From assembly GCA_965116905.1 (NCBI GenBank), contig OZ220732.1, positions 384,001 to 448,000 of the forward strand: 64,000 nt of DNA, in the 5' to 3' direction. The translations under genes were made by a program, and so were the position numbers. The DNA comes from Longimicrobiales bacterium (GTDB lineage Bacteria; Gemmatimonadota; Gemmatimonadetes; Longimicrobiales; Gaopeijiaceae). The notes below the pieces were generated by a model. That model had not been told where the DNA came from, did not search any database, and worked only from the letters and a program-made list of their open reading frames with translations. How positions within the stretch are numbered: position 1 is the stretch's first letter; the number at the start of each line of letters is the position of its first letter. This document shows positions 35,414 to 53,307 of the stretch, piece after piece.

Positions 35414-35883
<470 letters not shown>

Positions 35884-35887
<4 letters not shown>

Positions 35888-38241
35888 GCGGCAACGGCAC
35901 CGGAATCGGCGCATCGGTCAAGCGCAAGGAAGACACCCGCTTTCTGACGGGGCGCGGCCGTTACACCGACGACATCAATCTGCCCGGGCAGCTGTACGGG
36001 TACATCCTCCGCTCGCCGGTCGCGCACGCCAACATCGGCGGGATCGACACCAGCGCGGCGATGGCGGCGCCGGGTGTGCACGCGATCTTCACGGGCAAGG
36101 ACATGGAGGGCGTGGGCGGCATCCCGACGGGGTGGCTGATTCACAGCAAGGACGGCTCGCCGATGGTCGAGCCGGCGCATCCGGCGCTGGCGCTGGGCAA
36201 GGTGCGTTATGTGGGGGACTGCGTCGCGATCGTCGTCGCCGAGACGAGGGAGCAGGCGAAGGAAGCCGCGAACCTGGTCGACGTGGACTACCAGGACCTT
36301 CCGGCGGTGGCCTCGATCGAGGCGGCCGAGGCCGAGGGGGCAGCGCAGGTCTTCGACGAAGCGCCCGGCAACGTCTGCTACGACTGGGAGGTGGGCGACA
36401 GGGCGGCCACGGACGCGGCCTTTGAGGAAGCCACGCATGTGGTCTCGATCGACGTGGTCAACAACCGGCTCATTCCCAACGCGATCGAGCCCCGTGCCGC
36501 CATTGCCAACTACGACCCCGCGACGGGGGACTACACCCTCTATACCACAAGTCAGAACCCCCACCTGATCCGTCTGCTCCTCGGTGCGTTCGTACTCGGG
36601 CTGCCGGAGCACAAGCTGCGGATCGTGGCACCGGACGTGGGCGGCGGATTCGGCTCGAAGATCCCGCACTACGCGGAAGAGGCGATTCTGACGTGGACCG
36701 CCGGACAGCTGGGGCGGCCGGTGAAGTGGACGTGCGAGCGGATCGACGCCTTCAAGTCGGACACGCACGGGCGCGATCACATCAGCACGGCCCGTCTGGC
36801 CATGGACGCGGACGGCAAGTTCCTGGGGTTGCACGTCTCGACCAGGGCGAACCTGGGCGCGTACCTGTCGACGTTCGCCACCTGCGTGCCGACGTACCTG
36901 TACGGGATCCTGTTCGCGGGGCCCTACACGACGCCGGCGGTCTACTGCGAGGTCAAGTCGTTCTTCACGAACACGGTGCCCGTGGATGCACTGCGCGGCG
37001 CGGGACGGCCCGAGGCGACGTACCTGCTCGAGCGGCTGGTCGACAAGGCGGCCGCGGAGCTCGGGATGGACCGGGTGGAGATTCGCCGCAAGAACTTCAT
37101 CCGCGAGTTCCCGTACCAGACGCCGGTCGCGCTGCAGTACGACCAGGGCGACTACGACGCGACGCTCGATCTGGCGCTGGAAGCGTCGGACTGGGCGGGC
37201 TTCGAGGCGCGGCGGGCCGAATCGGCGGCGCGCGGGAAGTGCCGCGGCATCGGGATTTCGACCTTCATCGAGGCGTGCGGGATCGCGCCGTCGGCGGTGG
37301 TGGGGTCGCTGGGCGCGCGGGCCGGGCTGTACGAGTCGGGCAGCGTGCGGGTGCATCCGACGGGCTCGGTCTCGGTCTTCACCGGGACGCACAGCCACGG
37401 GCAGGGGCACGAGACCACGTTCGCGCAGATCGTCTCCGACATGCTCGGGGTCGACTTCGATGCGGTGGACGTGGTGCACGGCGACTCGGCCAAGATCCCG
37501 TTCGGGATGGGGACGTACGGCTCGCGCTCGCTGGCGGTGGGCGGGACCGCGATCTACCTGGCCGTCGAGAAGGTCATCGAGAAGGGCAAGAAGATCGCCG
37601 CGCACCTGCTGGAGGCTTCGGCAGAGGACATCGAGTTCGAGAACGGGTCCTTTACCGTGGCCGGGACGGATCGGTCGAAGTCGCTCGGCGAGGTGGCGCT
37701 GACCGCCTACGTGCCGCACAACTACCCCGAGGGGCTGGAGCCGGGGCTGGAGGAGACGGCGTTCTACGACCCGCTCAACTTCACCTTCCCGGCGGGCACG
37801 CACGTGGCCGAGGTCGAGGTGGATCCGGAGACGGGCGAGGTGGAGGTCGTCGCGGTGACGGGGGCCGACGATGTCGGGCGCGTCATCAACCCGATGATCG
37901 TGGCCGGCCAGCTGCACGGGGGGCTCGCGCACGGGATCGGGCAGGCGCTGCTCGAGGAATGCCTCTACCAGGAGGACGGGCAGCTGCAGACGGGGTCGTA
38001 CCTGGACTACACGATGCCCCGCGCGGCGGACCTGCCGTCCTTCAGCATCAACCACAACACGACGCTCTGCACCCACAATCCGCTCGGCGTGAAGGGGGTC
38101 GGTGAGGTGGGATCGATCGGGATTCCTCCGGCGGTGATCAACGCGGTGATCGATGCGTTGCGCCCGCTCGGCGTGAACGACATGGCGATGCCCGCCACCT
38201 CGCAGAAGGTGTGGCAGGCGATTCAGCAGGCCCGCGGCTAG
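35884..38241 (+). CDS. coxL: Form II CoxL-like molybdopterin subunit
   Basis: S-L-M gene order; active-site loop [21 protein letters not shown]. Confidence 0.88.
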
Positions 38242-38277
38242 CGGCCCGCGGACAGAGACGAACGGGAGACGAGACCT

Positions 38278-39078
38278 GTGAACGATTTCACATACCACGC
38301 ACCGACATCGTTGGACGAGTTGCTCGCGGCCCTGCGCGGCGGCGGTGACGGCGCGAAGCTGATCGCGGGCGGTCACAGCCTGCTGCCGGTCATGAAGCTG
38401 AACCTTGCCGCACCGACCGACCTGGTGTCGCTGGCGGGCGTGCCGGGGCTGGGGGACATCGCCGACGGAGGCGACTCGGTGACGGTGGGGGCGATGTGCT
38501 CCCACGCGCAGGTGGCCGGGTCGGCGGTCGTGCGGGCGAGGATTCCGGCGCTGGCCGCGATGGCCGACGGGATCGGCGACGCGCAGGTGAGGAACGCGGG
38601 CACGATCGGCGGGTCGGTGGCGCACAACGACCCAGCCGCGGACTACCCGGCGGCGTGTGTGGCGCTGGGGGCGACGATCGTGACCGACCGGCGCGAGGTC
38701 CACGCCGACGACTTCTTCCAGGGCATGTTCGCGACCGCCCTGGCCGACGACGAGGTGATCACGGCGGTGCGGTTCCCGGTGGCGGCGCGCGCGGCCTACG
38801 CGAAGTTCGCCAACCCCGCGTCCAAGTACGCGGTGGCGGGTGTGATGGTCGCCGACGGGCCCGCCGGGGTGCGGGTGGCCGTGACGGGCGCATCGGGTGA
38901 CGGCGTGTTCCGGGTGGCCGAGATGGAGGCCGCGCTGGGGGCGTCGTTCAGTGGTGAGGCGGTCGCCGGGGTTGCGGTGTCGTCCGACGGGATGCTGTCG
39001 GACACGGCGGCCGGCGCCGACTACCGGGCGCACCTGGTGACGGTCATGGCGAAGCGCGCGGTGGAGGCTTGCGGATAG
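38278..39078 (+). CDS. coxM: CoxM-like FAD subunit
   Basis: AGGHSLLPVMK, QVRNAGTIGGS and DPAADYP. Confidence 0.9.
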   Translation: MNDFTYHAPTSLDELLAALRGGGDGAKLIAGGHSLLPVMKLNLAAPTDLVSLAGVPGLGDIADGGDSVTVGAMCSHAQVAGSAVVRARIPALAAMADGIGDAQVRNAGTIGGSVAHNDPAADYPAACVALGATIVTDRREVHADDFFQGMFATALADDEVITAVRFPVAARAAYAKFANPASKYAVAGVMVADGPAGVRVAVTGASGDGVFRVAEMEAALGASFSGEAVAGVAVSSDGMLSDTAAGADYRAHLVTVMAKRAVEACG

Positions 39079-39148
39079 CGGCGGGCGCTGGAAGCCTGCG
39101 GACAGCGGGCGCCGCCGCCTGCGAGACTGGCTGCGGGCCGACGGTAGC

Positions 39149-40120
39149 GTGACGCCTCGCCAGCAGGCCCCCGGGCCGCGTCCGGCCTCGGTCGAGGACG
39201 CGGTCGCGCTGTTGCGCGGCCAGGGCTACGTGGCCGACGTGGGCCTCGGCACGGCCCTGTTCCTGTCGCTGGAGCTTGGGCGTCCCCTGTTGCTGGAGGG
39301 AGAAGCCGGCGTCGGCAAGACCGAGGTCGCGAAGACGCTGGCGGCAGGGCTTCGGCGGCCGCTGATCCGGCTGCAGTGCTACGAGGGGCTCGACCTGGCG
39401 TCAGCGGCCTACGAGTGGAACTACGCGAAGCAGATGATCCATATCCGGGCGGCGGAGGGTGGGGGCGGCCCGGCTTCGGGGGTTGGCGAGGCTGGTGCGG
39501 CCGCCGGACCGCCCGCCGACACCGGCGCCGCGCCCGCCAACCTCGCCAGCGATGTCTTCTCGGACGACTTCCTCATCCGCCGCCCCCTGCTCTCGGCGCT
39601 CGACCCCGCGGACGGTGTCGCCCCGGTGCTGCTGATCGACGAGCTCGACCGCACCGACGAGCCCTTCGAGGCCTACCTCCTGGAGGTCCTCTCCGACTTC
39701 CAGATCACGATTCCGGAGATGGGCACGGTGACCGCCGCAGAGGCGCCCCACGTCGTGATCACGTCCAACCGGACCCGCGAGATTCACGACGCCCTCAAGC
39801 GCCGCTGCATCTATCACTGGATCGACTACCCGACGGCGGCGCGCGAGCTTGAGATTCTGGCCTCGCGGGTTCCGGATGCTCCCGAGCAGCTCGGCCTTCA
39901 GGTGGTCGCGTTCGTCCAGAAGGTCCGCGAGCTCGAGCTGTTCAAGCGGCCTGGAGTGGCCGAGACGCTCGACTGGACGCGGGCGCTGATGGCGCTGGAC
40001 CGCCACACGCTCGACCGGGAGACCGCGCACCGCACGCTGGGCGTGCTGCTCAAGTACCAGGACGACCTGGAGCAGATGGCGGAAGGCGGGGTGGAGGAGG
40101 TGATGGGGACGGTGCGCTAA
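39149..40120 (+). CDS. coxD: MoxR AAA+ ATPase (CoxD-like)
   Basis: GEAGVGKT, RLQCYEGLD, LIDELDR and DALKRRC. Confidence 0.9.
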   Translation: MTPRQQAPGPRPASVEDAVALLRGQGYVADVGLGTALFLSLELGRPLLLEGEAGVGKTEVAKTLAAGLRRPLIRLQCYEGLDLASAAYEWNYAKQMIHIRAAEGGGGPASGVGEAGAAAGPPADTGAAPANLASDVFSDDFLIRRPLLSALDPADGVAPVLLIDELDRTDEPFEAYLLEVLSDFQITIPEMGTVTAAEAPHVVITSNRTREIHDALKRRCIYHWIDYPTAARELEILASRVPDAPEQLGLQVVAFVQKVRELELFKRPGVAETLDWTRALMALDRHTLDRETAHRTLGVLLKYQDDLEQMAEGGVEEVMGTVR

Positions 40121-42168
40121 CGCACCCGCCCGAACCTCACATCCCGCGTCCGGCCATTCGACAGGTAGAACCCGATTACCAGCCCGTTGCGGTCGCGCTC
40201 GAAGGCGAACGACATGCCGCCGCCGGAGAAGTTGTCCTTCTCGCCGGGCATGAGCGTCGCGCTGTCCAGCCGGCGCTGATGCATGACCAGTTCGCCCTCT
40301 TCGACCGCGAACGTGTAGAACGTCTCGATCTCCTCGCTGAAGAACCGGCCCGCGAAGTCGGCCAGATCCTCCGCCCCCGGCTCCCACGCCTCGGCGTCGT
40401 CGGCCAGACGGGTTGCGCGCTGATCGCCACCGTTCCCGTGCAGCACCGCCGCTTCAACCGCTCCGTCCTCTCCGCGCACGAACGTGACCGACGCCGAGGT
40501 CCCGGGCAGACGGAACGTCGAGTCGGACACGGGCACCATTTCGATTCGTTCCTGTCCCGGCGGCTGCCCGTAGAGGGTGCTGCCATCCCGCGTGAAGGTG
40601 AAGATGATCGCCGGCGATGAGTCCAGCGCATAGCGGCCGGCGAATTCGTCGAAGTCCTCGGGGTCGTAGTCTTCCACGTCGAAGTCGTCGGTGGCTGCGG
40701 CGTCGGCCTCGTCGCCCTCCTCCTCCAACTCCATCGCATCCTTGAAAAACGCCTCGGCCAGCTCGAAGGCCGTGTCGCTGTCGAACTGCGCGTGGTTGCT
40801 CTGGGTGGTGATGCCCGCGTTGATCTCCGGGTAGTACACGAGCATCGAGCGGTGCGCCACGTCCGCGCCGCCGTGGTGAACACGCCGCAGTCCCCCCTGC
40901 TCGTCGATGAACAGACCGTAGCCGTACCCCGTCTCCTCCCCGTCGGTGAGCACGAACGAGGTCATCATCTTGTCGATGCTCCCGCGGGTGCCGACGCGGG
41001 GGCTGGCGTAGTTCTCGATCCAGATCTGCAGGTCCCCGATCGTGCTGTAGACCGACCCCGCCCCGACCGCACCGCCCAGGTCGCCGATCTGGCGGTAGCC
41101 GTCCCCGGTGGGCGTATAGCCCTCGGACATGTTGGGGACCATGTGGCGCGGCGAGGGGCGCACCATCGAGCCGGTCATGCCCAGCGGCCCGAAGACGTGC
41201 TCTTCCATGAAGACGTGGAAGTCCTGGCCCGAGGTGCGCTCGACGATGGTCGCCGCGAGCCCGAAGGCCGTGTTGTTGTAGTTCCACTCGGCGCCGGGGG
41301 CGTTCTGGAGCGCCGGCTGCCGCTGCACGATGTCGATGAGCTCCGAACGGTCGATCCAGTCGCCGCGGTCGAGACGGCGGCCCGTCATGCGCAGCAGGTT
41401 GAGGAACTCGCGCAGGCCGGACGTGTGGGTGACGAGGTGCCGAACCTGGATCGTTCCGTCGAATTCGGGGAGTTCGGGGATGTGGGTGCGGGTGTCGTCG
41501 TCGAGGGATAGCAGCCCGCGCTCGGCCTGCAGCATGATCGCGAAGGCGGTGAACTGCTTCGAGGTCGAGCCGATGTTGGTGCGCGTGTCGGGGCCGAAGG
41601 GGATCCCGTAGGTGAGGTTGGCCGTGCCGTAGGTCTGCGAGTAGATGGTCTCGCCGTCCCGCCACACCCGGACCGCCGCGCCCGGCGACTCGGGGCCGTC
41701 GAAGCGCGCCATCATCTGGTCGGCGAGCTCTTTCGGGTCGGTGGCTATGGGTTCGTGGCGCAGCAGGGTGATCTCGTAGCTGCCGGCGGCGGCATCCTCG
41801 TCCTCCTCGTCCCCCGCGACAACCAGCTCGACCGTGTGCGTGCCCGCGCTCCCGGTGCGGGCGCTGAAGCGCTCGGGGCCGCGCCCGAGCCCGCCGAACT
41901 GCCCGATCCGCTCCCCGGCCGGGTCGAGAATGCGAATGTCCACGTCAACCGAGATCTGGTCCACTTCGCCCAGGAAGAACTCGTTCTCGTCGGCGTCGAT
42001 CGTGTAGCGGACCGTTTGTCCGTGGGAGAGAGCGCCCGCCACCATGCTGCCCGGCCGCAGTTCCGTGGTTTGTCCCCACGCCTGACAGCCTGCGATAAGG
42101 ATCGGGACTGCGGCACAGAGGGTGGACCGCACGTGGCGGCCGGGGCGGCGGCGGGTGACCGGCTTCAT
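40117..42168 (-). CDS. Exported serine hydrolase (beta-lactamase class C-like) with N-terminal PPC-like and C-terminal DUF3471-like domains
   Basis: STSK (SxxK), YNN, HGG and THTSGL; LIAGC. Confidence 0.85.
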   Translation of the reverse strand: MKPVTRRRPGRHVRSTLCAAVPILIAGCQAWGQTTELRPGSMVAGALSHGQTVRYTIDADENEFFLGEVDQISVDVDIRILDPAGERIGQFGGLGRGPERFSARTGSAGTHTVELVVAGDEEDEDAAAGSYEITLLRHEPIATDPKELADQMMARFDGPESPGAAVRVWRDGETIYSQTYGTANLTYGIPFGPDTRTNIGSTSKQFTAFAIMLQAERGLLSLDDDTRTHIPELPEFDGTIQVRHLVTHTSGLREFLNLLRMTGRRLDRGDWIDRSELIDIVQRQPALQNAPGAEWNYNNTAFGLAATIVERTSGQDFHVFMEEHVFGPLGMTGSMVRPSPRHMVPNMSEGYTPTGDGYRQIGDLGGAVGAGSVYSTIGDLQIWIENYASPRVGTRGSIDKMMTSFVLTDGEETGYGYGLFIDEQGGLRRVHHGGADVAHRSMLVYYPEINAGITTQSNHAQFDSDTAFELAEAFFKDAMELEEEGDEADAAATDDFDVEDYDPEDFDEFAGRYALDSSPAIIFTFTRDGSTLYGQPPGQERIEMVPVSDSTFRLPGTSASVTFVRGEDGAVEAAVLHGNGGDQRATRLADDAEAWEPGAEDLADFAGRFFSEEIETFYTFAVEEGELVMHQRRLDSATLMPGEKDNFSGGGMSFAFERDRNGLVIGFYLSNGRTRDVRFGRVR

Positions 42169-42351
42169 CGTGGAACTCCAATCGCTGAAAGTGACGAGGA
42201 CGACGCGGACAGGTTACGGCGGGATCGTGCAACCGGGCAAAGGGAAGGCCCCTGGCGGGGACACCGGTCCAGCACGATTCGACCGCCCGGCGTCGAGTTC
42301 GACTTCGCCGACGAGTTCGACTTCGCCGATGTTGCACCGTATTGATTGAGC

Positions 42352-43599
42352 ATGACCAGCACTCTCAGCCACCCCGGCCGCCTCCCCGAAAACGTCGCAC
42401 ACTTCGTACGCCTTCTGCGCGCCGCCGGGCTGCCTGTGGGACCCGGCCACACAATCACCGCCGCCCGGGCGCTCGCGGCCGTGGACATCACGAGCAAGCG
42501 ACAGTTCTTCTGGGCTCTCCACGGCACCCTCGTCTCGCGCCACGAGCACCACCACATCTTCGAGAGCGCGTTCCGGCTGTTCTGGCGCGACCCGTTCGGC
42601 GCGGACGAGGCATTGGCCGCACTGCTCTCGCGCTCGCAGATCCCGGCCGAGAAGCCGACGCGGAAGGCACCGGCCCGGCTGGCACCCGAGCACGAGGCGA
42701 CAAACCTGCCCGCCGGCGAGCTCGCGGGCGACCCGGTCGAGCAGTTTCCGTTGCGAATGGCGTTCTCGCCGGGCGAAGTCTCCCGCACCAAGGACTTCGA
42801 GGAGATGACTCCCGCCGAGGTACGGCAGGCCAGGGACGCGATGCGGAGACTCGAACTCGACCTGCGGCCGGTGCGCACACGCCGGCACCGTCCTGACCCG
42901 GAAGGACGCCTGATCGATTTGCGGCGCACCCTGCGGACGACCGTGCGCACTGGTGGCAATCCGTTGCCGCTCCAGCGCCGGTCAATGGCGACACGGCGCC
43001 CCGTCCTGGTGACGCTCTGTGACATTTCGGGGTCGATGGAGGCCTATTCGCGCATTCTGCTCCATTTCTTCCACGCGCTCACGAACGCCGGCGACCGCGT
43101 CCACACGTTCGTGTTCGGCACGCGGCTGACCAACATCACGCGACTCCTGAAGGACCGCGACGTGGACCGCGCGCTAGACCGCGTGGGAGGCACCGTCACC
43201 GACTGGTACGGGGGCACGCGGATCGGAGCCGCGCTGGGCGCATTCAACCTGCTCTGGTCCCGCCGGCTCCTCGCACAGGGGGCGGTGGTGCTGCTGGTGA
43301 CGGACGGACTGGATCGGGAGGGGGGGACGGGGATACGACTGCAGGCACGCCGCCTGCGCAAGTCGTGCCGAAGACTGATCTGGCTCAATCCCCTGCTGCG
43401 CTACCGGGACTTCGCCCCCAAGGCGGCCGGCATCCGTGCGCTTCTCCCGGAGGTGGACGAACATCGGCCCGTGCACAACCTCGACAGCCTGGAGCGCCTG
43501 GCCGACGCGCTGAGCGGCCGCAACCCACCGCGCCCGACCGCCGTCAGGCTGCCGGGAGCGAACGCCAGGGATGGAGTCGTTGAGGACGCTGCTGGGTGA
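42352..43599 (+). CDS. coxE: CoxE-like VWA domain protein
   Basis: MIDAS DISGSME, FGTRLTNIT, GGTRIG and WLNPLL. Confidence 0.9.
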   Translation: MTSTLSHPGRLPENVAHFVRLLRAAGLPVGPGHTITAARALAAVDITSKRQFFWALHGTLVSRHEHHHIFESAFRLFWRDPFGADEALAALLSRSQIPAEKPTRKAPARLAPEHEATNLPAGELAGDPVEQFPLRMAFSPGEVSRTKDFEEMTPAEVRQARDAMRRLELDLRPVRTRRHRPDPEGRLIDLRRTLRTTVRTGGNPLPLQRRSMATRRPVLVTLCDISGSMEAYSRILLHFFHALTNAGDRVHTFVFGTRLTNITRLLKDRDVDRALDRVGGTVTDWYGGTRIGAALGAFNLLWSRRLLAQGAVVLLVTDGLDREGGTGIRLQARRLRKSCRRLIWLNPLLRYRDFAPKAAGIRALLPEVDEHRPVHNLDSLERLADALSGRNPPRPTAVRLPGANARDGVVEDAAG

Positions 43600-44658: not shown

Positions 44659-44729
44659 ACCGGCGCGGTGTCCCGTACTCACTGGCGCGGTGTCCCGTAC
44701 TCGCCTAAGATGCACTCGGATGCACTCGC
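44659..44729. repeat. Direct repeats in the divergent promoter region
   Basis: GGCGCGGTGTCCCGTACTC x2 (44662, 44684; period 22) and GATGCACTCG x2. Confidence 0.85.
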
Positions 44730-44751
44730 AACCGCATGAGGAGAGTTGAGT

Positions 44752-45921
44752 ATGAACACCAGGTTTTCTCGCCGTCACTTCATGGGCAGTGCCGCAGCGG
44801 CGCTGGGCGCCCTCGGCCTGCGGCCCGCCACCGCCCTCGGCGCCGGCATCCGGCCCCCGCCTCCGGGGATCGAGCCGCGCGATCCCTACGACGACCTCGC
44901 GAAGCTTTCTTCGAACGAGAATCCGTACGGCCCGTCGGAAAAGATGATGGCGTCCATGAACGCCGCCTGGAAGTATTCCAACCGGTACGGGTACCCCGAT
45001 GGCGACGTGCTCGAGAAGATCGCGGAACACCACGGTGTCGACACCCGCAACATCATCATGCATGCGGGGTCCGGAGAGACGCTGAAGGTCGCCGCGCTCG
45101 CGTTCCTGCGGCACGAAGAGAAGGTGGTCGGCGTCGAGCCCACGTACCTGACCGTGTACCGGGCCGCCTCGGGCGTGGACGCCGATGCGATCACCCGTCC
45201 GCTCCTTCCCGACCACACCCAGGACATCGACGACCTGATCCAGGTCACGAAGCGCAACTACCGCGACGTCGGCATGGTATACGTCTGCAACCCCAACAAC
45301 CCGACCGGCGTGGTCGTCCCCGATGCGGACATCCGGCGCCTCCTCGACAACATCCCCGAGGACATCCCAGTCCTGATCGACGAGGCGTACCATCACTTCG
45401 TGCAGGATCCGCGCTACGCGACCGCGGTTCCCTACATCAAGGAGGGGCGCAAAGTCCTCGTGACCCGCACCTTCTCCAAGATCTACGGCATGGCGGGCCT
45501 GCGCCTCGGCTACGGGATCGCCCCGCCCGAGATGATCGACGAGATGCGGACCTACACGACCGGCACGATCAACGCGCTCGTCAAATGGGGCGGCGTGGCC
45601 GCACTCGAAGACAACGAGTCCGAAGCCTGGGTCAGGGACACGACCATCGCGTTGCGCGAGGCCACGGCGAACGAGCTTAGCAACCAGGGCTTCGAGGTCA
45701 TCCCCTCCGAGACCAACTTCTTCATGGTGCACACCGGCCGGCCCGCCTCGGAGGTCCGCGCCGAGTTCCGCAAGCATGACGTTGCCGTGGGACGCGACTT
45801 CCCGCCGATGCTGGACTACCTGCGCGTTTCGATCGGCACGGAGGAAGAGATGAAGCGCTTCCTGACGGCCTGGAACCAGATCTTCCCGGACGGAATGACG
45901 GCAACGGGCAACAGTCGGTAG
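44752..45921 (+). CDS. HisC-like class I/II PLP aminotransferase with Tat signal
   Basis: FSRRHFMG; SNENPYG, CNPNNPTG, DEAY and TFSKIYGMAGLRLG. Confidence 0.88.
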   Translation: MNTRFSRRHFMGSAAAALGALGLRPATALGAGIRPPPPGIEPRDPYDDLAKLSSNENPYGPSEKMMASMNAAWKYSNRYGYPDGDVLEKIAEHHGVDTRNIIMHAGSGETLKVAALAFLRHEEKVVGVEPTYLTVYRAASGVDADAITRPLLPDHTQDIDDLIQVTKRNYRDVGMVYVCNPNNPTGVVVPDADIRRLLDNIPEDIPVLIDEAYHHFVQDPRYATAVPYIKEGRKVLVTRTFSKIYGMAGLRLGYGIAPPEMIDEMRTYTTGTINALVKWGGVAALEDNESEAWVRDTTIALREATANELSNQGFEVIPSETNFFMVHTGRPASEVRAEFRKHDVAVGRDFPPMLDYLRVSIGTEEEMKRFLTAWNQIFPDGMTATGNSR

Positions 45922-45926
45922 GCCGG

Positions 45927-46787
45927 TTGTCTCGGCCCGGTGTGGTCCTTGCCCTGGCGGCGGGGACCGTCGCTGGCCTGTGCGGGCCTGCCACGCGGGG
46001 CAACGCTCAGGAAGTCGCCTGTCCCACCGACCTCGAACTCCTCGTCGAGCGCCCCTATGCGGCGCGGGCGGGAATCGGGGTCGGGTCCACCGTGCTCGTC
46101 CGTGCCAGACCCGATGCAAGTCCGTGCTCGGCGCGGGTCGCGGGCATCCTTGAACTGGCGGCGGACCCGTCCCGGCTCATGGCCACGCGGCCGCGCGTCC
46201 TGCTTCACCTTGCCCATCTCCAGGCGCTGACAGGACGAACGGACGAGGTGGACTATTTCACCGTCCAGCTTCGACGCGGAGCCGATCCCGGTGTGGTCGC
46301 CGGCGAGCTGGAACCGCTCCTTGTCGGCACCCGGGTCCATCTCACGACCGAGGTCACCGATCGGGCCTCGGAGACCTTTCGCGTCGTGAGCCGATTCCAC
46401 GCGGCCATCGCGGGCATCACGCTGGTCGCAGGCGGGGTCTTTCTGGCGTGCATCATGGTCCTCAAGGTGCAGGAGCGGCGCGACGCCGTGGCCGCAGCAC
46501 GGCTGGCCGGCATCCCCCGCCGCATTCTGCTGGGGTGGACGGTCGCCGAAGCGGCGCTTCTGTCAGCCCTCGGCGGAGGGGCCGGGCTGGGTGTCGGCTT
46601 CGCGGGGTCGGCGGCGGTGAACGCGTACTATCAGCGCGCCTACGACACGACGCTGGTGTTCTCGGTCGTCACCGGCGAGATGGTCGTGCAAGCGCTCCTG
46701 CTCGCCGTGGTCCTCGGCATGGCCGCAGGGGTTGTCGCCGGCTTCCGAATGTTCGCATCCGACCCGCTCGAACAGCTGGGCGTGTAG
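45927..46787 (+). CDS. FtsX-domain ABC permease lacking the N-terminal half (own signal peptide)
   Basis: Signal peptide; distal half of periplasmic domain; VQERR....RLAG...EAALL.ALGG FtsX pattern. Confidence 0.8.
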   Translation: MSRPGVVLALAAGTVAGLCGPATRGNAQEVACPTDLELLVERPYAARAGIGVGSTVLVRARPDASPCSARVAGILELAADPSRLMATRPRVLLHLAHLQALTGRTDEVDYFTVQLRRGADPGVVAGELEPLLVGTRVHLTTEVTDRASETFRVVSRFHAAIAGITLVAGGVFLACIMVLKVQERRDAVAAARLAGIPRRILLGWTVAEAALLSALGGGAGLGVGFAGSAAVNAYYQRAYDTTLVFSVVTGEMVVQALLLAVVLGMAAGVVAGFRMFASDPLEQLGV

Positions 46788-46799
46788 TCGTCCACGGCC

Positions 46800-47993
46800 A
46801 TGATGCTCGCGCTCAATTCGATTCGTGAACTCCGGTACCGGCCGCTGCGAACCGCGCTCACCCTTGGCGGCGTGACCGTGGCCACCGCCATGCTCTCGGA
46901 CATGCTGATGCTCGGAGGCGGAATCCAGCGGAGTTTCGGCGAGGCGCTCGAGTCGGTCGGATACGAACTGCGCCTGTCCCCGAAGGGCACCTTGCCGTTC
47001 GACACGGAAGCCACGATCCGCGGGATCGGTGGACTTCGTGACACCGTGGAATCCGTTGCGGGAGTGGAAAGCCTGGTGCCGGTGCTGGCGCAGACGCTGA
47101 CCATCGTGGCCGGCGGCGGCGGACCGGCCGCGGCGGACGCCGGTCGGCAGACGCTGGCGCTGGGACTGGACACGGAAGAGGAAGGACTCTACACACTGCT
47201 CGCCGGCCGTCCGCCCGGCGCCGGGGAAATCCTGCTCGATCCCGCGATGGCCGCGCTCCTCGACGTGCGGTCCGGCGACCGCCTGAGCCTGGGTGTCAGC
47301 AGCCGGTTCGGCACCTGGGGCAGCGACGCGACCGCCGAAGTCTCCGGGACCGCCGAGTTCATCTTCGCCACCCGGCGAGACATGCCGGTCGCCCTTCCGC
47401 TGGCCGACCTGCAGACGATCTCGGGTCGCGTGGACCAGGCCTCGTTCGCCATGATCCGCGTGCGCGGGGGCCACGCTCCCGAGTCCGTTCGGGAGGCCAT
47501 CACGGCCGCGACCGACCGCGTCGAGGTCGTGACGCTGGCCGGCATCGCAGAGCAGGTCGACGAACGGCTTTCGTACTTCCGGCAGCTCTCGGCGATTCTC
47601 GCCAGCGTCAGCCTGCTGGTGGCCGCACTCCTCATCGGGACGATCAGCGCCGTGTCCGTGAGCGATCAGTTGGGGACCATCGCCGCTCTCCGCGCCATCG
47701 GCGTGTCGCGGCGAAGAATCGTCGGTGACCTGACGGCCGAGAGCGCGGTTCTGTGCGGCGTCGGCGGCGGGCTGGGAATCGGGCTCTCGATCGCGGTCGC
47801 GCACTACCTGGAGTCGATCCTGGCCGACTTCCCGGGGCTCCCCGTCGCCGTGCGCTTCTTCGTGCTGAGCCCTGGGAGCCTCGCTGCCGCGTACGGCCTC
47901 GTGGTCGCCGCAGGGGTCGTCGCGGGTCTGTTGCCCGCACTGCGCGCCACGCGGCTCGAGGTGACGACGCTCCTCCACCGGGAGGAACCGTGA
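46800..47993 (+). CDS. MacB/FtsX-type ABC permease (complete)
   Basis: RPLRTALTLGGV TM1; periplasmic domain; IAALRAIG..ES; PALRATRL. Confidence 0.9.
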   Translation: MMLALNSIRELRYRPLRTALTLGGVTVATAMLSDMLMLGGGIQRSFGEALESVGYELRLSPKGTLPFDTEATIRGIGGLRDTVESVAGVESLVPVLAQTLTIVAGGGGPAAADAGRQTLALGLDTEEEGLYTLLAGRPPGAGEILLDPAMAALLDVRSGDRLSLGVSSRFGTWGSDATAEVSGTAEFIFATRRDMPVALPLADLQTISGRVDQASFAMIRVRGGHAPESVREAITAATDRVEVVTLAGIAEQVDERLSYFRQLSAILASVSLLVAALLIGTISAVSVSDQLGTIAALRAIGVSRRRIVGDLTAESAVLCGVGGGLGIGLSIAVAHYLESILADFPGLPVAVRFFVLSPGSLAAAYGLVVAAGVVAGLLPALRATRLEVTTLLHREEP

Positions 47994-48685
47994 ACCGGGG
48001 AGCGGTCGTCGTCGTCCGCGACGCCACGCGTGACTATCGCCAGGGTCAGACGGTCGTGCGGGCGCTCCGGGGCATCTCGGTCACGGTGGACCAGGGTGAT
48101 TTCCTGGCGGTGACGGGCCCGAGCGGATCGGGCAAGTCGACCCTGCTGCACCTGCTCGGAGGCGTGGATGTCGCCACGGCGGGCGAGGTGCGCTTTCTGG
48201 GCCGGGATCTGGCAAAGATGACGGTGGAGGCGCGTGCCGCGCTGCGCCTCCGCGAAGTCGGCCTCGTGTTCCAGCGCTTCCACCTGCTGCCCATGCTCAC
48301 CGCGCTCGAGAACGTGGAGTTGCCGTTGGCCGCGGCGCGAGTGCCGCGCCGGGAGCGTCGCGACCGCGCTGCCGCGGTGCTCACACGCGTGGGGCTCGCG
48401 GATCGTCTGCGCCATCGTCCCGCCGCGCTTTCCGGTGGGCAACGGCAGCGCGTCGCCATCGCCCGCGCTCTCGTCAACCGACCCGCACTGGTCCTCGCGG
48501 ACGAACCCACAGGCGAACTCGACCGCGCGGCCTCGCGCCGCGTGCTGGACCTCTTCCGCGACCTCAACGCCGCCGGAACGACCCTCGTGGTCGCCACCCA
48601 CGACCTGGAATTCGCGGCGGGCGCGCGCCGCCGGATCGAGGTCGTCGATGGGCGGATCGCCCGGAACTCCGCGGACTCCCGATGA
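47990..48685 (+). CDS. ABC ATP-binding protein (LolD/MacB-type)
   Basis: GPSGSGKST, LSGGQRQRVAIARAL, ADEPTG and THD. Confidence 0.95.
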   Translation: MNRGAVVVVRDATRDYRQGQTVVRALRGISVTVDQGDFLAVTGPSGSGKSTLLHLLGGVDVATAGEVRFLGRDLAKMTVEARAALRLREVGLVFQRFHLLPMLTALENVELPLAAARVPRRERRDRAAAVLTRVGLADRLRHRPAALSGGQRQRVAIARALVNRPALVLADEPTGELDRAASRRVLDLFRDLNAAGTTLVVATHDLEFAAGARRRIEVVDGRIARNSADSR

Positions 48686-50151
48686 TCGCGCGTCTCGTCC
48701 GGGCCTCCTTCCTGCAGCGCCCCGGGCGCAGTCTCCTGCTGCTGGCCGGCTACGCGCTCGGCGTCGGCGTCACGATCGTCCTGCTCTCGGTGGGCGGCGC
48801 GCTCGAGGACCAGGCGAGGGACAGGGAACTCGTGGGCGGCGGCGACCTGGTCGTCCTCCCGGCGGGCATCGACCTGGAGACGCTCAAGACCGGAGGCGTC
48901 AGCTCGATGTATTTCACCATCGAGCAGGCTTCCCTGCTGTATCGGGACGTGCTGAGCACCCGCTTCAAGGATCGGGTCGACGCTGCCGTCCCCTGGATCA
49001 TGGACGAGCTGCTCTACCTCGAAGCGGACACGGGAGTGGTGGCGCTTTCCGCCGGGGCCACGATCCCGGGGCTCGCGGAGCAGCTCTCGGTGTCGCCCGA
49101 GCTGCTCGAGGGCACCTGGCGCGACCTCGATGACGGTCTCAGCTGGCGGAGTCCGTCCGACGCCGAGCTCTACCGTTCGCTGGACGCGCTGCACGTGCCG
49201 CGGGGCGCGGCCGCGTCCGACTCGACATGGGCCGAGTGGCACTACTTCAACGTCCTGATCCCGGACGCGGGATGGCTCTACCTGACCTACATGGTCGCCG
49301 GCGAGGTTCCCGACGGCCGCTGGGGTGGCCGCCTGCTCGCGACCCGCGTCGAGCCGGGGACCGCGGAACGCGCGTATCTCGAGACGGTGCCGGCGTCCGA
49401 GGTCCGCTTTACGGAGGGGGAGCCCGACCTCTCGATCGGGCGCTCCAGCGTCGCGGTCCAGGACGACGGCAGCTATCGCCTTCATGCCCGTATTCCCTCC
49501 GAGACCGGTGGGGCGCCGCTTGGGGTCGACCTGACCGTCACGGCCCGTTCGCGCCGGTATCTCCCGCCGGTCGATATCGGCACGGAGCAGATCGTGTCCG
49601 GCTACACCGTCCCGCTGCTCGATGCGGCGGCAACCGGCCAGGTGTGCGAGGGTACCCGGTGCCGGTCGCTCGACAGCGCCCGTGCCTACCATGACCACAA
49701 CTGGGGCACATGGTCGGGTGTGACCTGGGACTGGGGTCAAGCGTACCTGGGCGACTATTCGGTGCTGTATGGAGGCGTCGCCTCTTCGGACGCCCCCGGG
49801 CCCGCCGCGGACGAACCGCCGGATGAATCCAGCGGGCCACGCATTCTCTACCTGGCGGACGACAACGGCTTCGCGGGCATCCTGCCGATTCGCCAGCTCC
49901 GCGTCGAGCGTCCGGGCGGCGACAGGCGGACCGCCCCCGAATCGATCGCGATACTGGCGACGAACGGGGCCGATTCCCTCGCGCTCGAGATCACAATCGT
50001 GCACGCGCGCTCCACGCAGGTTCCGGTCGCTGCAAGCACCCTGGATCCCCTCTTCTTCCAGATGCGTGGAACGGCCGTGCTGTCCGGCCGCTTGCGCGGC
50101 TCGCCGATTCTCGAATCGGGAGACGGGTTCTTCGAGACCTGGACCCGCTGA
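48682..50151 (+). CDS. Fusion of an ABC-permease N-terminus with an AttH/CrtC-like lipocalin-fold domain
   Basis: RPGRSLLLLAGYALGV TM1; later WAEWHYFN, AYHDHNWG and WDWGQ. Confidence 0.7.
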   Translation: MIARLVRASFLQRPGRSLLLLAGYALGVGVTIVLLSVGGALEDQARDRELVGGGDLVVLPAGIDLETLKTGGVSSMYFTIEQASLLYRDVLSTRFKDRVDAAVPWIMDELLYLEADTGVVALSAGATIPGLAEQLSVSPELLEGTWRDLDDGLSWRSPSDAELYRSLDALHVPRGAAASDSTWAEWHYFNVLIPDAGWLYLTYMVAGEVPDGRWGGRLLATRVEPGTAERAYLETVPASEVRFTEGEPDLSIGRSSVAVQDDGSYRLHARIPSETGGAPLGVDLTVTARSRRYLPPVDIGTEQIVSGYTVPLLDAAATGQVCEGTRCRSLDSARAYHDHNWGTWSGVTWDWGQAYLGDYSVLYGGVASSDAPGPAADEPPDESSGPRILYLADDNGFAGILPIRQLRVERPGGDRRTAPESIAILATNGADSLALEITIVHARSTQVPVAASTLDPLFFQMRGTAVLSGRLRGSPILESGDGFFETWTR

Positions 50152-50277
50152 TTCACCCGCCCGGCGGTCTGGCGCCGTCACGGGCGCCGGGGCGCGGGTC
50201 CGCAATGCTTGGCGACGTGTGCCGATATGCCCGATATTCCCGGTCCGCACTCCCGACGCCCCCTGTCCCGCCAGCCC

Positions 50278-51720
50278 ATGAACCCACCTTCCCTCCGGCA
50301 GACCGCCGCCCGCGTACGGCGCGGCGACATCACCGCCCGGAGCGTTGTCGAAGAGGCCATCCGGCGCCACGAGGAGAGCGATCTCGGCGCCTACATCGTA
50401 TTCGACCCGGAGGGTGCCCGCGCCCGGGCCCGCGCAATCGACGCGGCAGTGGCGCGCGGAGAGGACCCCGGACCCCTGGCCGGAGTCACCGTCTCGGTCA
50501 AGGACCTGTATGGCGTCGAGGGCCTGCCGATCCGCGCCGGGACCAGGCGGGAGCTTCCCGCACACTGGCGCCGGGAGGGCTTTCTGGTCCGTACCATGCG
50601 AGAACTCGGGGCCGTGATCGTCGGAAAGACGCACACGGTGGAACTGGCGTTCGGAGGCGTCGGCCTGAACCCGAACACGGGAACCCCCGTAAACCCCTGG
50701 GACGCCGACGAACACCGCGCGCCGGGAGGCTCTTCGGCAGGTGCGGGTGTGAGTCTGTGGGAAGGATCGGCCCTCATCGCGCTGGGAAGCGATACGGGAG
50801 GATCGGTGAGGATACCGGCTTCGGCCACGGGGGTGGTGGGCCACCGCCATACCACGGGAAGGTGGCCGACCAGTGGCGTCGTCCCCCTGAGCACCACCCT
50901 CGACACGGTTGGGCTCCTGACGCGCACGGCGGCGGATTCACGATACGCGTTCGGGCTGATCGACACGCGGGCCGCCAGCCCACCCGGGGCAGGCCGCGGT
51001 GCCGGGGACGCCCCCCCGCCCGCCGGCGGCCCGGGTCACCCGGCAACGACCGTCGCCGGCCTCCGGATCGGCCTTCCCCGCTCCGACCTGTGGAGGCGGG
51101 CCGCGCCCGATATCGCCGCCGTCGTCCGCCGCGCACTCGGCGAACTGGAGGCCGCGGGCGCGCACGTCCTCGAAGTCGAAGCCCCGGAACTGGACGAGGC
51201 CGGCGAGCGGTACCTGGCGGGCGAATTGGTGCAGCCGGAGCGCTTCGAGTCACTGGAACGGGATCTTCCCGGCTGGACTCCCATCCTGGACCCCACCGTG
51301 GGCAAGCGGCTGGAGTCCGCCCGGGACGTGAGCGCCGTGGACTACGTGGCCGTGTTGCGCGCGCGCCGCCGGCTCTCGGAAAGCATCCATGCCAGAATCG
51401 AAGCCGGGCGCATCGACGTGCTCGCCACGCCCACCCTCCCCATCACCCCGCCCCCGCTGTCCGCCCTGTCCAGGCTGGATGTCTACCGCGCGGTCAACCG
51501 CGACATGCTGTCCGGCACCGGTCCGGCCAGCATGCTGGACATGTGCGCCGTGAGCCTCCCCGCCGGCCTGGATGAGCACGGCATCCCCGTCGGCTTGCAG
51601 CTCATCGGCCCGTCGGGCGGCGACCACGTCCTCCTGGAGCGGGCGGGCGCGGTGGAAGCCGTGCTCGGGACGGCACACGCGCGGCTGGGCACACCGCCCC
51701 GCCTCACGGCCTCACCCTGA
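50278..51720 (+). CDS. Amidase signature family enzyme
   Basis: VSVKDL, GGSSAG and GSDTGGSVRIPAS; start may be 50227. Confidence 0.92.
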   Translation: MNPPSLRQTAARVRRGDITARSVVEEAIRRHEESDLGAYIVFDPEGARARARAIDAAVARGEDPGPLAGVTVSVKDLYGVEGLPIRAGTRRELPAHWRREGFLVRTMRELGAVIVGKTHTVELAFGGVGLNPNTGTPVNPWDADEHRAPGGSSAGAGVSLWEGSALIALGSDTGGSVRIPASATGVVGHRHTTGRWPTSGVVPLSTTLDTVGLLTRTAADSRYAFGLIDTRAASPPGAGRGAGDAPPPAGGPGHPATTVAGLRIGLPRSDLWRRAAPDIAAVVRRALGELEAAGAHVLEVEAPELDEAGERYLAGELVQPERFESLERDLPGWTPILDPTVGKRLESARDVSAVDYVAVLRARRRLSESIHARIEAGRIDVLATPTLPITPPPLSALSRLDVYRAVNRDMLSGTGPASMLDMCAVSLPAGLDEHGIPVGLQLIGPSGGDHVLLERAGAVEAVLGTAHARLGTPPRLTASP

Positions 51721-51760
51721 GTCCCGAGTGCCGAGTCCTGCGTCCCGAGTCCTGAGTCCC
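51716..51760. repeat. Heptamer tandem repeat (CCYGAGT-like) x6 between convergent genes
   Basis: cctgagt cccgagt gccgagt cctgcgt cccgagt cctgagt. Confidence 0.85.
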
Positions 51761-52440
51761 TACAGGCGCAGCGCGCCGATCACCTCCGCCAGCACCGCCA
51801 CGGCGATCTCCTCGGGTGTGCGCGCACCGATCGGCAACCCGATGGGGCCATGGATGCGGTCCAGGTCGGCTGCGCTGAAGCCCAGCGCGCCCAGCCGCTC
51901 CCGTCTGGCAGCCTGCGTCTTGCGGCTCCCCAGCGCGCCCACGTAGAACGCGTCGCTCCGCAGCGCGGCCACGAGCGCCGGGTCGTCAATCCTGGGATCG
52001 TGGGTGAGTGCGACGACGGCCGTGCGTGCGTCCAGCTGAAGCGTGGCTATCGCCTCGTCGGGCCACTGCCGAAGCAGCACCGCTCCGGGGAACCGTTCCG
52101 CCGTGGCGAAGCCTTCCCGCGGATCCAGCACCGTCACGCGAAAGCCCGCCGATGCGGCCATCCCGACGAGTGCCTGGGCGATGTGGACCGCGCCCACCAC
52201 GACGATCCGCGGCGAGCGGATGTAGGGGCGCAGAAAGACCGCCCCCTCCGGTGTCTCGACCGTCCGCGACTCACCCGTGCGGAGCGCGTCGCCGACCTGC
52301 GTGGCATCGAGCGACAACCGGCGGGGCGCGTGCCCCGCCTCGATCAGTTCCTGCACACCGTCGGTCAGGCGGGTCGCCAGCAGCACGTCGCGCCCCGCCT
52401 CCTGTGCCTCGACCACGCCCTGCAGCACCGCCGTCCTCAC
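51760..52440 (-). CDS. XdhC/CoxF family, C-terminal Rossmann part
   Basis: VGAVHIAQ, THDPRID, YVGALGSRK and PIGLPIGA.TPEEIA. Confidence 0.9.
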   Translation of the reverse strand: MRTAVLQGVVEAQEAGRDVLLATRLTDGVQELIEAGHAPRRLSLDATQVGDALRTGESRTVETPEGAVFLRPYIRSPRIVVVGAVHIAQALVGMAASAGFRVTVLDPREGFATAERFPGAVLLRQWPDEAIATLQLDARTAVVALTHDPRIDDPALVAALRSDAFYVGALGSRKTQAARRERLGALGFSAADLDRIHGPIGLPIGARTPEEIAVAVLAEVIGALRL

Positions 52441-52477
52441 GCGGCGGCCTCCGCGCCCGCACCTGGCATCCGGCCGG

Positions 52478-52822
52478 CTACCCCGCGACCGGCTCGACGA
52501 ACAGATGCACCCTGCCTCCGCAGGCCAGCCCCACCTCCCACGCCATCTCGTTCGTGACGCCGAATTCCATCGTGCGGGGCTCGCCCGACTCGATCACATC
52601 GAGCGCGGTCTCGATCACCGCGCCCTCGATGCACCCACCCGATACCGATCCGGAGAAGTCGCCATTCGCGGCGATCGCCATGTGACTTCCGGCGCGCCGC
52701 GGGGCCGATCCCCATGTTTGCGTCACCGTGGCGAGCGCGACCCGTCGGCCCTCTTCGAGCCATGCGGCCGCTTGCGCCAGAACGGGATCGGCGTTCGTGT
52801 TCCTGCTGTTCGATTGGTTCAT
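52478..52822 (-). CDS. XdhC/CoxI family, N-terminal domain
   Basis: ATVTQTWGSAPR, GSVSGGCIEG and VGLACGG. Confidence 0.9.
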   Translation of the reverse strand: MNQSNSRNTNADPVLAQAAAWLEEGRRVALATVTQTWGSAPRRAGSHMAIAANGDFSGSVSGGCIEGAVIETALDVIESGEPRTMEFGVTNEMAWEVGLACGGRVHLFVEPVAG

Positions 52823-52860
52823 GGGACTGGAAGCTACCCCTCGGGGGATGGAACGCAACA

Positions 52861-53307
52861 TTGACGGCAACCCGCAGCGATGAGCTAAACCAGGCCGTCA
52901 TCCGGGATCACTTCCGGCGGCCCCGCAATCGCGGCTCCCTCGAGCCCCCCGCCACCGGAGGGCACGCCCACAACCGGTTCTGCGGTGACACGGTGCGCAT
53001 CTGGGCGCGCGTCGAGAACGGCTGCCTTGCCGAAGTGACCTTCGACGGCCGCGGGTGTGCGATATCCCAGGCCGCGGCATCCATGCTTACCGCCGTCGTG
53101 CGCGGAAAGGACGTGGACGCCGTCGCGAGGCTTCGGCAGACCTTCGTCGACGGGCTCGCGGCCAAGGGCTCGACCCTCCCCAGGGAACTCGGAGACCTTC
53201 GTGCCCTGGCCGGAGTCCGGCGTTTTCCGAGCCGGATTCGCTGTGCGGTGCTCCCTTTCGACGCTCTGGAGGACGCACTCGGCGGAGGTCCGGCGAAAGA
53301 GGAATAG
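52861..53307 (+). CDS. sufU: SufU/NifU-like Fe-S scaffold or sulfur-transfer protein
   Basis: DHFRRPRNRG, CGD, GCAISQAAAS and RIRCA. Confidence 0.85.
   Translation: MTATRSDELNQAVIRDHFRRPRNRGSLEPPATGGHAHNRFCGDTVRIWARVENGCLAEVTFDGRGCAISQAAASMLTAVVRGKDVDAVARLRQTFVDGLAAKGSTLPRELGDLRALAGVRRFPSRIRCAVLPFDALEDALGGGPAKEE

Follow-up and report, generated by a model that had tools for sequence, protein, structure and literature searches.

The closest described relatives of the system discussed here are ATP-binding cassette (ABC) transporters of type VII that are encoded together with a double beta-barrel protein of the AttH type, namely attEFGH, Rv0986-Rv0988 and NE1404-NE1406; in the accessible parts of these sources, the link between barrel and machine is drawn from gene neighbourhood (PMC3982062, PMC2954199). 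A precedent for a complex of an extractor and an enzyme is YbbAP-TesA of E. coli, according to the available portion of that work (PMC12646458). In a 64,000-nucleotide stretch of DNA from a Longimicrobiales bacterium (contig OZ220732.1, positions 384,001 to 448,000; the window hereafter), four tightly coupled genes on the forward strand, A, B, C and D at 45927-50151, present a different layout (Table 1). Judged by sequence, they are a type VII (MacB/LolCDE-like) ABC operon in which one permease subunit appears to be divided between A and D, and in D the permease part continues directly into an AttH-fold barrel. The open reading frames (ORFs) have the same coordinates as in an earlier annotation made from the letters alone (the original prediction), and neighbouring genes overlap by GTGA (B and C) and ATGA (C and D). 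Literature searches, which left most subscription journals and supplements out of reach, found no published account of such a split-permease/barrel layout.

The divided permease subunit

The type VII assignment follows from a permease that has four transmembrane helices (TM), the first two (TM1 and TM2) separated by a large periplasmic domain, and from a LolD/MacB/FtsE-type ATPase encoded alongside it. In B both Pfam domains of such a permease, MacB_PCD (residues 18-236) and FtsX (residues 266-387), score above cut-off, and the best PDB sequence matches are MacB, LolF and LolE. In A there is an FtsX match and MacB_PCD is absent, and D matches positions 1-111 of the 207 of MacB_PCD only (residues 17-147, E 2.4e-4, below cut-off). 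When profiles built from the genome loci described below were aligned, D1-133 fell on B1-129 (probability 95.5%) and A34-285 on approximately B141-393 (99.7%), in keeping with the original prediction of a permease split into two complementary genes. The two segments neither overlap nor leave a large gap: about 11 residues, B130-140, are unaligned in the profiles, and these are covered by D134-147 by eye and by the Pfam match. Together A and D span the same range as a full type VII permease (PF12704 plus PF02687), and by these alignments they are the predicted complementary halves of one permease subunit, cut in what we take to be the Sabre subdomain. The likeness of the start of D to B, which had been noticed by eye, holds in the profiles but not in pairwise BLAST; because the single-sequence comparison of D with B is not significant (best E 0.75), profiles were needed to establish it, whereas A against B gives E 1e-8. 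PDB sequence searches returned TM1 matches only. D has a single TM by hydropathy, and the N-half of the most divergent D seen (P0244, 24% identity) passes the MacB_PCD cut-off.

The split is not peculiar to this genome. D homologues numbered 1806 among 7994 scored candidates (906 representatives at E 0.001), and 159 loci were fetched, 79 from genomes (78 titled Gemmatimonadota) and 80 from metagenomes. Gene content is A-B-C-D in 101 of them, B-C-D in 18, C-D in 19 and D only in 21, the shortfalls lying mostly at contig ends; of the 87 loci in which D is preceded by 3.3 kb or more of sequence, 86 have the order A-B-C-D. The recurrence of both the split and the gene order, which the original prediction had proposed as a check, is thereby established. 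Since contigs of runs X2 and X3, two independent assemblies, span the four genes with 0 indels within 45927-50151, and since the split recurs in these 101 loci, it is not an assembly error. The RNA-library sequences (X3, X10) are contigs only and give no indication of transcription; operon-bearing data sets with a named source are sponge metagenomes.

The two pieces also occur together. Among 301 Gemmatimonadota genomes (the unpublished G155 included), A is present in 108 and an intact D in 106, and all 108 genomes with A carry D, which is intact in 105, cut by a contig end in two and frameshifted in one. The single intact D without A is found in G168, where the contig ends at B. Beyond this phylum, members named Vicinamibacterales or Acidobacteria occur in two of the ten metagenome clusters inspected, and there are D homologues named Armatimonadota, known from D alone; across phyla the half-domain of D is retained with its conserved residues. 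An unsplit D-A fusion was found neither among the 120 longer homologues of A that were listed (of 7990 candidates, 272 passed) nor among the collected proteins, which is weak evidence; P0279 looks like a frameshift artefact. In one locus of the 101 (L097:2193-4382), A and B share a single reading frame in which the tail of A is about 12 residues shorter, and this may be a real fusion or an assembly error.

At the start of A, likeness to the N-half of B upstream of the shared part was found in none of 87 closed A frames, and a stop occurs within 60 codons in 40 of these and within 100 in 65. The best 19-residue hydropathy in A has a median of 1.72, whereas the TM1 segments of B and D stand at 2.35 and 2.38, respectively; this hydrophobic stretch, weaker than TM1 in the N-termini of relatives, supports the signal-peptide-like start that had been claimed for A, and a cleavable signal peptide is likely.

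The proposal that the two fragments co-fold was followed up by structure prediction. For D1-175 with A28-286 the complex scored 0.63 against 0.00 for the best of three controls, a mark attained by 116 of 157 solved pairs and 2 of 215 mismatched pairs. Contact agreement between runs was at least 93%, and the predicted local distance difference test (pLDDT) of the partners was at least 78. Approximately 450 contacts are predicted along TM1 and the half-domains, the tightest of which join strands D56-59 and D101-106 with strand A109-114. Because split-gene halves tend to pass through their likeness to solved MacB/Lol structures, this score shows fit rather than binding.

The barrel and its relatives

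When the AlphaFold2 model of D (pLDDT 90.7) is compared with solved structures, the AttH/CrtC-like nature claimed for its C-terminal domain is confirmed at the level of predicted fold. The barrel superposes on NE1406/AttH (2ICH) with Z 24.0, root-mean-square deviation 3.5 and 286 aligned residues (Foldseek E 1.2e-10). Its other fold matches are CghA (Z 24.0), kievitone hydratase (23.5), 25-phosphosteroid lyase (21.6) and Fsa2 (within 21.6-24.0), with the next entry at 10.3, and five of the six top matches are enzymes. A feature search with D residues 150-489 gave, as a lead only, clusters of CrtC, Diels-Alderase and Svf1 as well. Homology to canonical AttH begins at about D145 (hhalign 95.8%, E 8e-9), which leaves practically no linker between the half-domain and the barrel. 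In a 116-row alignment of D, from which eight frameshifted or partial rows were dropped, all 108 remaining rows share D168, H171, E185, W186, Y188, G307, Y336-G342, W349, W351, G352 and E485, and the invariant Glu, Asp and His residues among them suggest that the barrel is an enzyme. PF07143 and PF17186, which give 209 and 150 bits on a canonical AttH, have no match at E 0.1 in D or 27 relatives; Pfam and NCBIfam provide no family name for the barrel, and its relatives have only weak Tocopherol_cycl, DUF2804 and Rv3169_fam matches. In five of 120 listed homologues (P0097, P0102-P0104, P0114) and in P0131, D is extended C-terminally by a class A beta-lactamase-like serine hydrolase (PF13354).

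The operon shares with attEFGH-type systems a type VII ABC ATPase, two permease repeats and an AttH-fold double barrel, and the motifs EW-x-Y, W-x-W and a C-terminal G-x-G-x-x-E are common to the D barrel and AttH. Each of the 11 canonical loci fetched runs from the ATPase through a two-repeat permease to an AttH that is encoded separately and has a hydrophobic N-terminus of its own, whereas here a subunit is cut within the periplasmic domain and joined to the barrel at that point; D is thus not a separate exported AttH downstream of an intact permease. The D barrel has YHDHNWG where AttH has WMDREW, in addition to lacking the two AttH Pfam families, and A and the N-half of D align better to B than to the AttF/AttG repeats, in a comparison of profiles of different depth. 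Canonical AttH occurs in 17 of the 301 genomes, none of which has A or an intact D; the naive probability of this exclusion is 0.0005 by genome and 0.007 by genus, values inflated by kinship, and the mutual exclusion of operon and canonical attH is suggestive only. One genome with a canonical attEFGH-type locus holds a broken D fragment with two TGA stops (G237:C42:6232-6621, L180) and no A, B or C nearby. Two long ORFs over canonical AttH (1247 and 1269 amino acids) were considered as fusions and rejected as overlapping frames.

By sequence comparison, the tethered barrel is most closely related to a stand-alone family of approximately 345 residues (P0467-P0540), which has no Pfam name and is far closer to it than canonical AttH. 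Of 78 matches to this family, 74 are of stand-alone length or fragments and four are of D length. In the 69 members of 320-380 residues that were used, YHDHNWG is present in 69 and a hydrophobic N-terminal stretch in only one; the family is probably cytoplasmic. The D profile aligns with it at hhalign probability 100 (E 7e-45), and its median score is 138.6 bits on the stand-alone family, 2.5 on 10 canonical AttH and 1.4 on 6 CrtC. Because the barrel is so much closer to this family than to canonical AttH, a separate pairing is likelier than a rearranged attEFGH operon, and we suggest that the system is probably the former; the idea of a rearranged attEFGH was downgraded on these scores and on the better fit of the halves to B than to AttF/AttG. 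The AttEFGH-type label attached to the locus earlier therefore stands for its functional likeness and fails for membership, given the missing Pfam matches and the stand-alone nearest kin. In G053, a D-type barrel without the permease part (L193:851-2137, G053:C8) lies three ORFs upstream of an isopentenyl diphosphate isomerase gene (170 bits against a cut-off of 127).

The carotenoid 1,2-hydratase CrtC and the hydroxy-glycerol dialkyl glycerol tetraether synthase Hgs have the same double-barrel fold as the D barrel, as do kievitone hydratase (7A0Q), 25-phosphosteroid lyase (9FZN) and the Diels-Alderases CghA/Fsa2, at 12-13% identity; in contrast to D, none of the solved or plasmid double-barrel examples seen here has a transporter fused to it. 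CrtC, kievitone hydratase and Hgs are described, in the accessible part of the source, as performing acid-catalysed chemistry at a prenyl-type carbon (bioRxiv 10.1101/2025.10.20.683597), and CrtC requires H239, W241, Y266 and D268, as stated in the available part of another (PMC4717167). When D is aligned with five plasmid CrtC encoded beside crtD and one Gemmatimonadota relative, their Y-x-D falls on Y336-x-D338, the equivalence to R. gelatinosus numbering being taken from a 27-residue spacing. D has neither an NF045922 match nor a crt gene context. A CrtC-like gene with both H-x-W and Y-x-D is found in G104 (L186:1030-2223; NF045922 E 1e-12, below cut-off), followed by an apparent glycosyltransferase gene.

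In YbbAP-TesA, the hydrolase TesA is a protein of its own and YbbP an unbroken chain with two repeats, whereas here the AttH-fold partner is covalently part of the split subunit. The likeness to LolCDE and MacB lies in the 4-TM permease fold, the LolD-like ATPase and the predicted heterodimeric membrane part, which here consists of three chains. Scores lie below the LolCDE equivalog cut-offs (TIGR02211 240 against 308 bits for C, TIGR02212 27 against 362 bits), and no LolA-, MacA- or TolC-like gene is present among the recurrent annotated neighbours of the operon. The layout works like attEFGH and YbbAP-TesA but falls outside canonical AttH, CrtC and LolCDE.

Proposed mechanism and alternatives

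We regard it as highly probable that A and D reassemble beside an intact B and two copies of the ATPase C, so that the barrel would sit on one periplasmic head of the complex. TM1 of D would carry the first half-domain and the barrel to the periplasm, the signal peptide of A would export the second half-domain, and strands of both chains would build a single periplasmic domain. An intact 4-TM permease has both chain ends in the cytoplasm, and the split would therefore free a periplasmic chain end for fusion. With somewhat more confidence than doubt, we propose that the complex extracts a hydrophobic molecule and presents it to the barrel for acid-catalysed chemistry. By analogy with YbbAP-TesA, ATP-driven mechanotransmission would draw a lipid-like molecule out of the inner membrane and pass it by way of the periplasmic head to the barrel, which would be a tethered periplasmic enzyme with a hydrophobic, possibly isoprenoid, substrate. 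On the model of CrtC and kievitone hydratase, Asp338 with Tyr336, Glu185 and histidines may protonate a prenyl-type double bond, leading to hydration, cyclisation or elimination.

A number of observations weigh against parts of this proposal. The modelled complex covers the A-D pair, two of the five chains. The short hydrophobic stretch in 84 of the 87 A N-termini is a 9-residue count without a chance control, and an AxA-Q/LLQ-type site is present in only 32 of the 87, by a crude pattern. The one exception to the gene order, L010, is in a record titled chromosome; it carries B-C-D, and the 6 kb upstream contain no A, which may be elsewhere or lost. Approximately 64% of the 301 genomes are without the system, which is hence not essential, and the operon flanks differ by lineage (aminotransferase/amidase, MntR/Nramp, EVE, rhomboid) and name no pathway. 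The isoprenoid link has one sister-family locus and the fold relatives as its sole basis. Of the 116 alignment rows, 74 were fetched by the patterns YHDHNWG or TWAEWHY, so part of the motif conservation reflects selection bias; D168, H171, W349, W351 and E485 fall outside both patterns. Finally, the His-x-Trp pair of CrtC, 27 residues upstream, is not kept in D at the aligned place.

The absence of this pair would also suit a barrel that, in the same complex, is a non-catalytic lipid or ligand binder, an acceptor or chaperone with a LolA-like role on the periplasmic head. NE1406/AttH has been read as lipocalin-like and linked to LolD-like ABC systems, in the part of that account available (PMC2954199), and in the operon C is LolD-like and B resembles LolE/LolF. 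We nevertheless consider a binder unlikely, as a barrel anchored through TM1 is unable to travel across the periplasm, the invariant acids and histidines suit catalysis better, and enzymes predominate among the top fold matches. Less probable still is that the ATP-driven motion extracts nothing from the membrane and serves to activate the barrel, or an additional fused hydrolase, towards a periplasmic substrate or a polymer of the envelope, in the way that FtsEX activates EnvC. The beta-lactamase-like extensions of D would fit such a role, but these fusions are rare, and the substrates of the characterised fold relatives are small hydrophobic molecules.

It is also conceivable that A and D act independently, with A a short permease in which the hydrophobic stretch at the N-terminus takes the place of TM1, and the start of D a mere membrane anchor; the 19-residue hydropathy does reach at least 1.8 in 37 of the 87 A N-termini. 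Set against this are the complementary boundaries of the two pieces, the conserved residues that the D half-domain keeps across phyla, the presence of D in every genome with A, and a predicted sheet that requires strands from both chains, and we hold independence to be very improbable.

The preferred reading, a reassembled extractor with a tethered enzyme, allows a more speculative scenario, to which we give only tentative credence. In this scenario a permease split in its periplasmic domain would have captured a cytoplasmic isoprenoid-modifying barrel at the new chain end, yielding a machine that uses ATP to extract and modify a prenyl lipid at the outer face of the inner membrane; the machine would have arisen independently of attEFGH and may share its job. 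If true, the shared job would explain why none of the genomes examined here has both the operon and attEFGH, and the scenario would point to the function of attEFGH-type systems. The layout further indicates a natural split site within the periplasmic domain of a type VII ABC system, conserved in both Gemmatimonadota and Acidobacteriota, and a route by which type VII machines could gain a covalently attached periplasmic partner. As a fusion, it constitutes Rosetta-stone evidence that AttH-fold barrels can act directly on type VII machines, and the invariant residues together with the soluble sister family make the barrel chemistry directly testable.

Coordinates and flanking genes

Table 1. 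Features of the A-B-C-D operon, in positions of the window
Feature	Position	Strand	Description
Gene A	45927-46787	+	286 amino acids; starts at TTG or, alternatively, at GTG 45942 in the same frame; residues 1-27 (approximate) a likely Sec signal peptide, followed by the second half of a MacB-type periplasmic domain and TM2-4 (FtsX); PF02687 160-278
A, predicted signal peptide	45927-46007	+	Short hydrophobic stretch, G-N-A end before Q28; putative cleavage
Gene B	46800-47993	+	397 amino acids; intact 4-TM type VII ABC permease; PF12704 + PF02687
Gene C	47990-48685	+	LolD/MacB-like ABC ATPase; PF00005
Gene D	48682-50151	+	489 amino acids
D, N-terminal part, residues 1-143	48682-49110	+	TM1 (19-37) and first half of periplasmic domain; PF12704 profile 1-111
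D, C-terminal part, residues 146-489	49117-50151	+	AttH/kievitone-hydratase-type double beta-barrel
E185-W-H-Y188 conserved motif	49234-49245	+	Canonical AttH equivalent is EWWY
Invariant Y336-H-D338-H-N-W-G342	49687-49707	+	Y-x-D aligns with CrtC Tyr/Asp pair
Invariant E485	50134-50136	+	

The operon is bordered upstream by a class I/II aminotransferase gene with a twin-arginine-like N-terminus (44746-45921) and downstream by an amidase gene (50209-51720), both of which border it only in close relatives (7-9 loci). In many Gemmatimonadales loci (within L012-L079) the operon is preceded by genes for an MntR/DtxR-type regulator (31 loci) and for an Nramp transporter (27 loci), which may be synteny only. 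Genes on both sides of the operon, at 35794-43599 and 51760-53307, are presumably those of a molybdo-hydroxylase (Cox/Xdh-like) with accessory genes, a naming that we take from the translations. A short direct repeat lies upstream of the aminotransferase gene at 44660-44705, where the X3 contig is 22 bases shorter.

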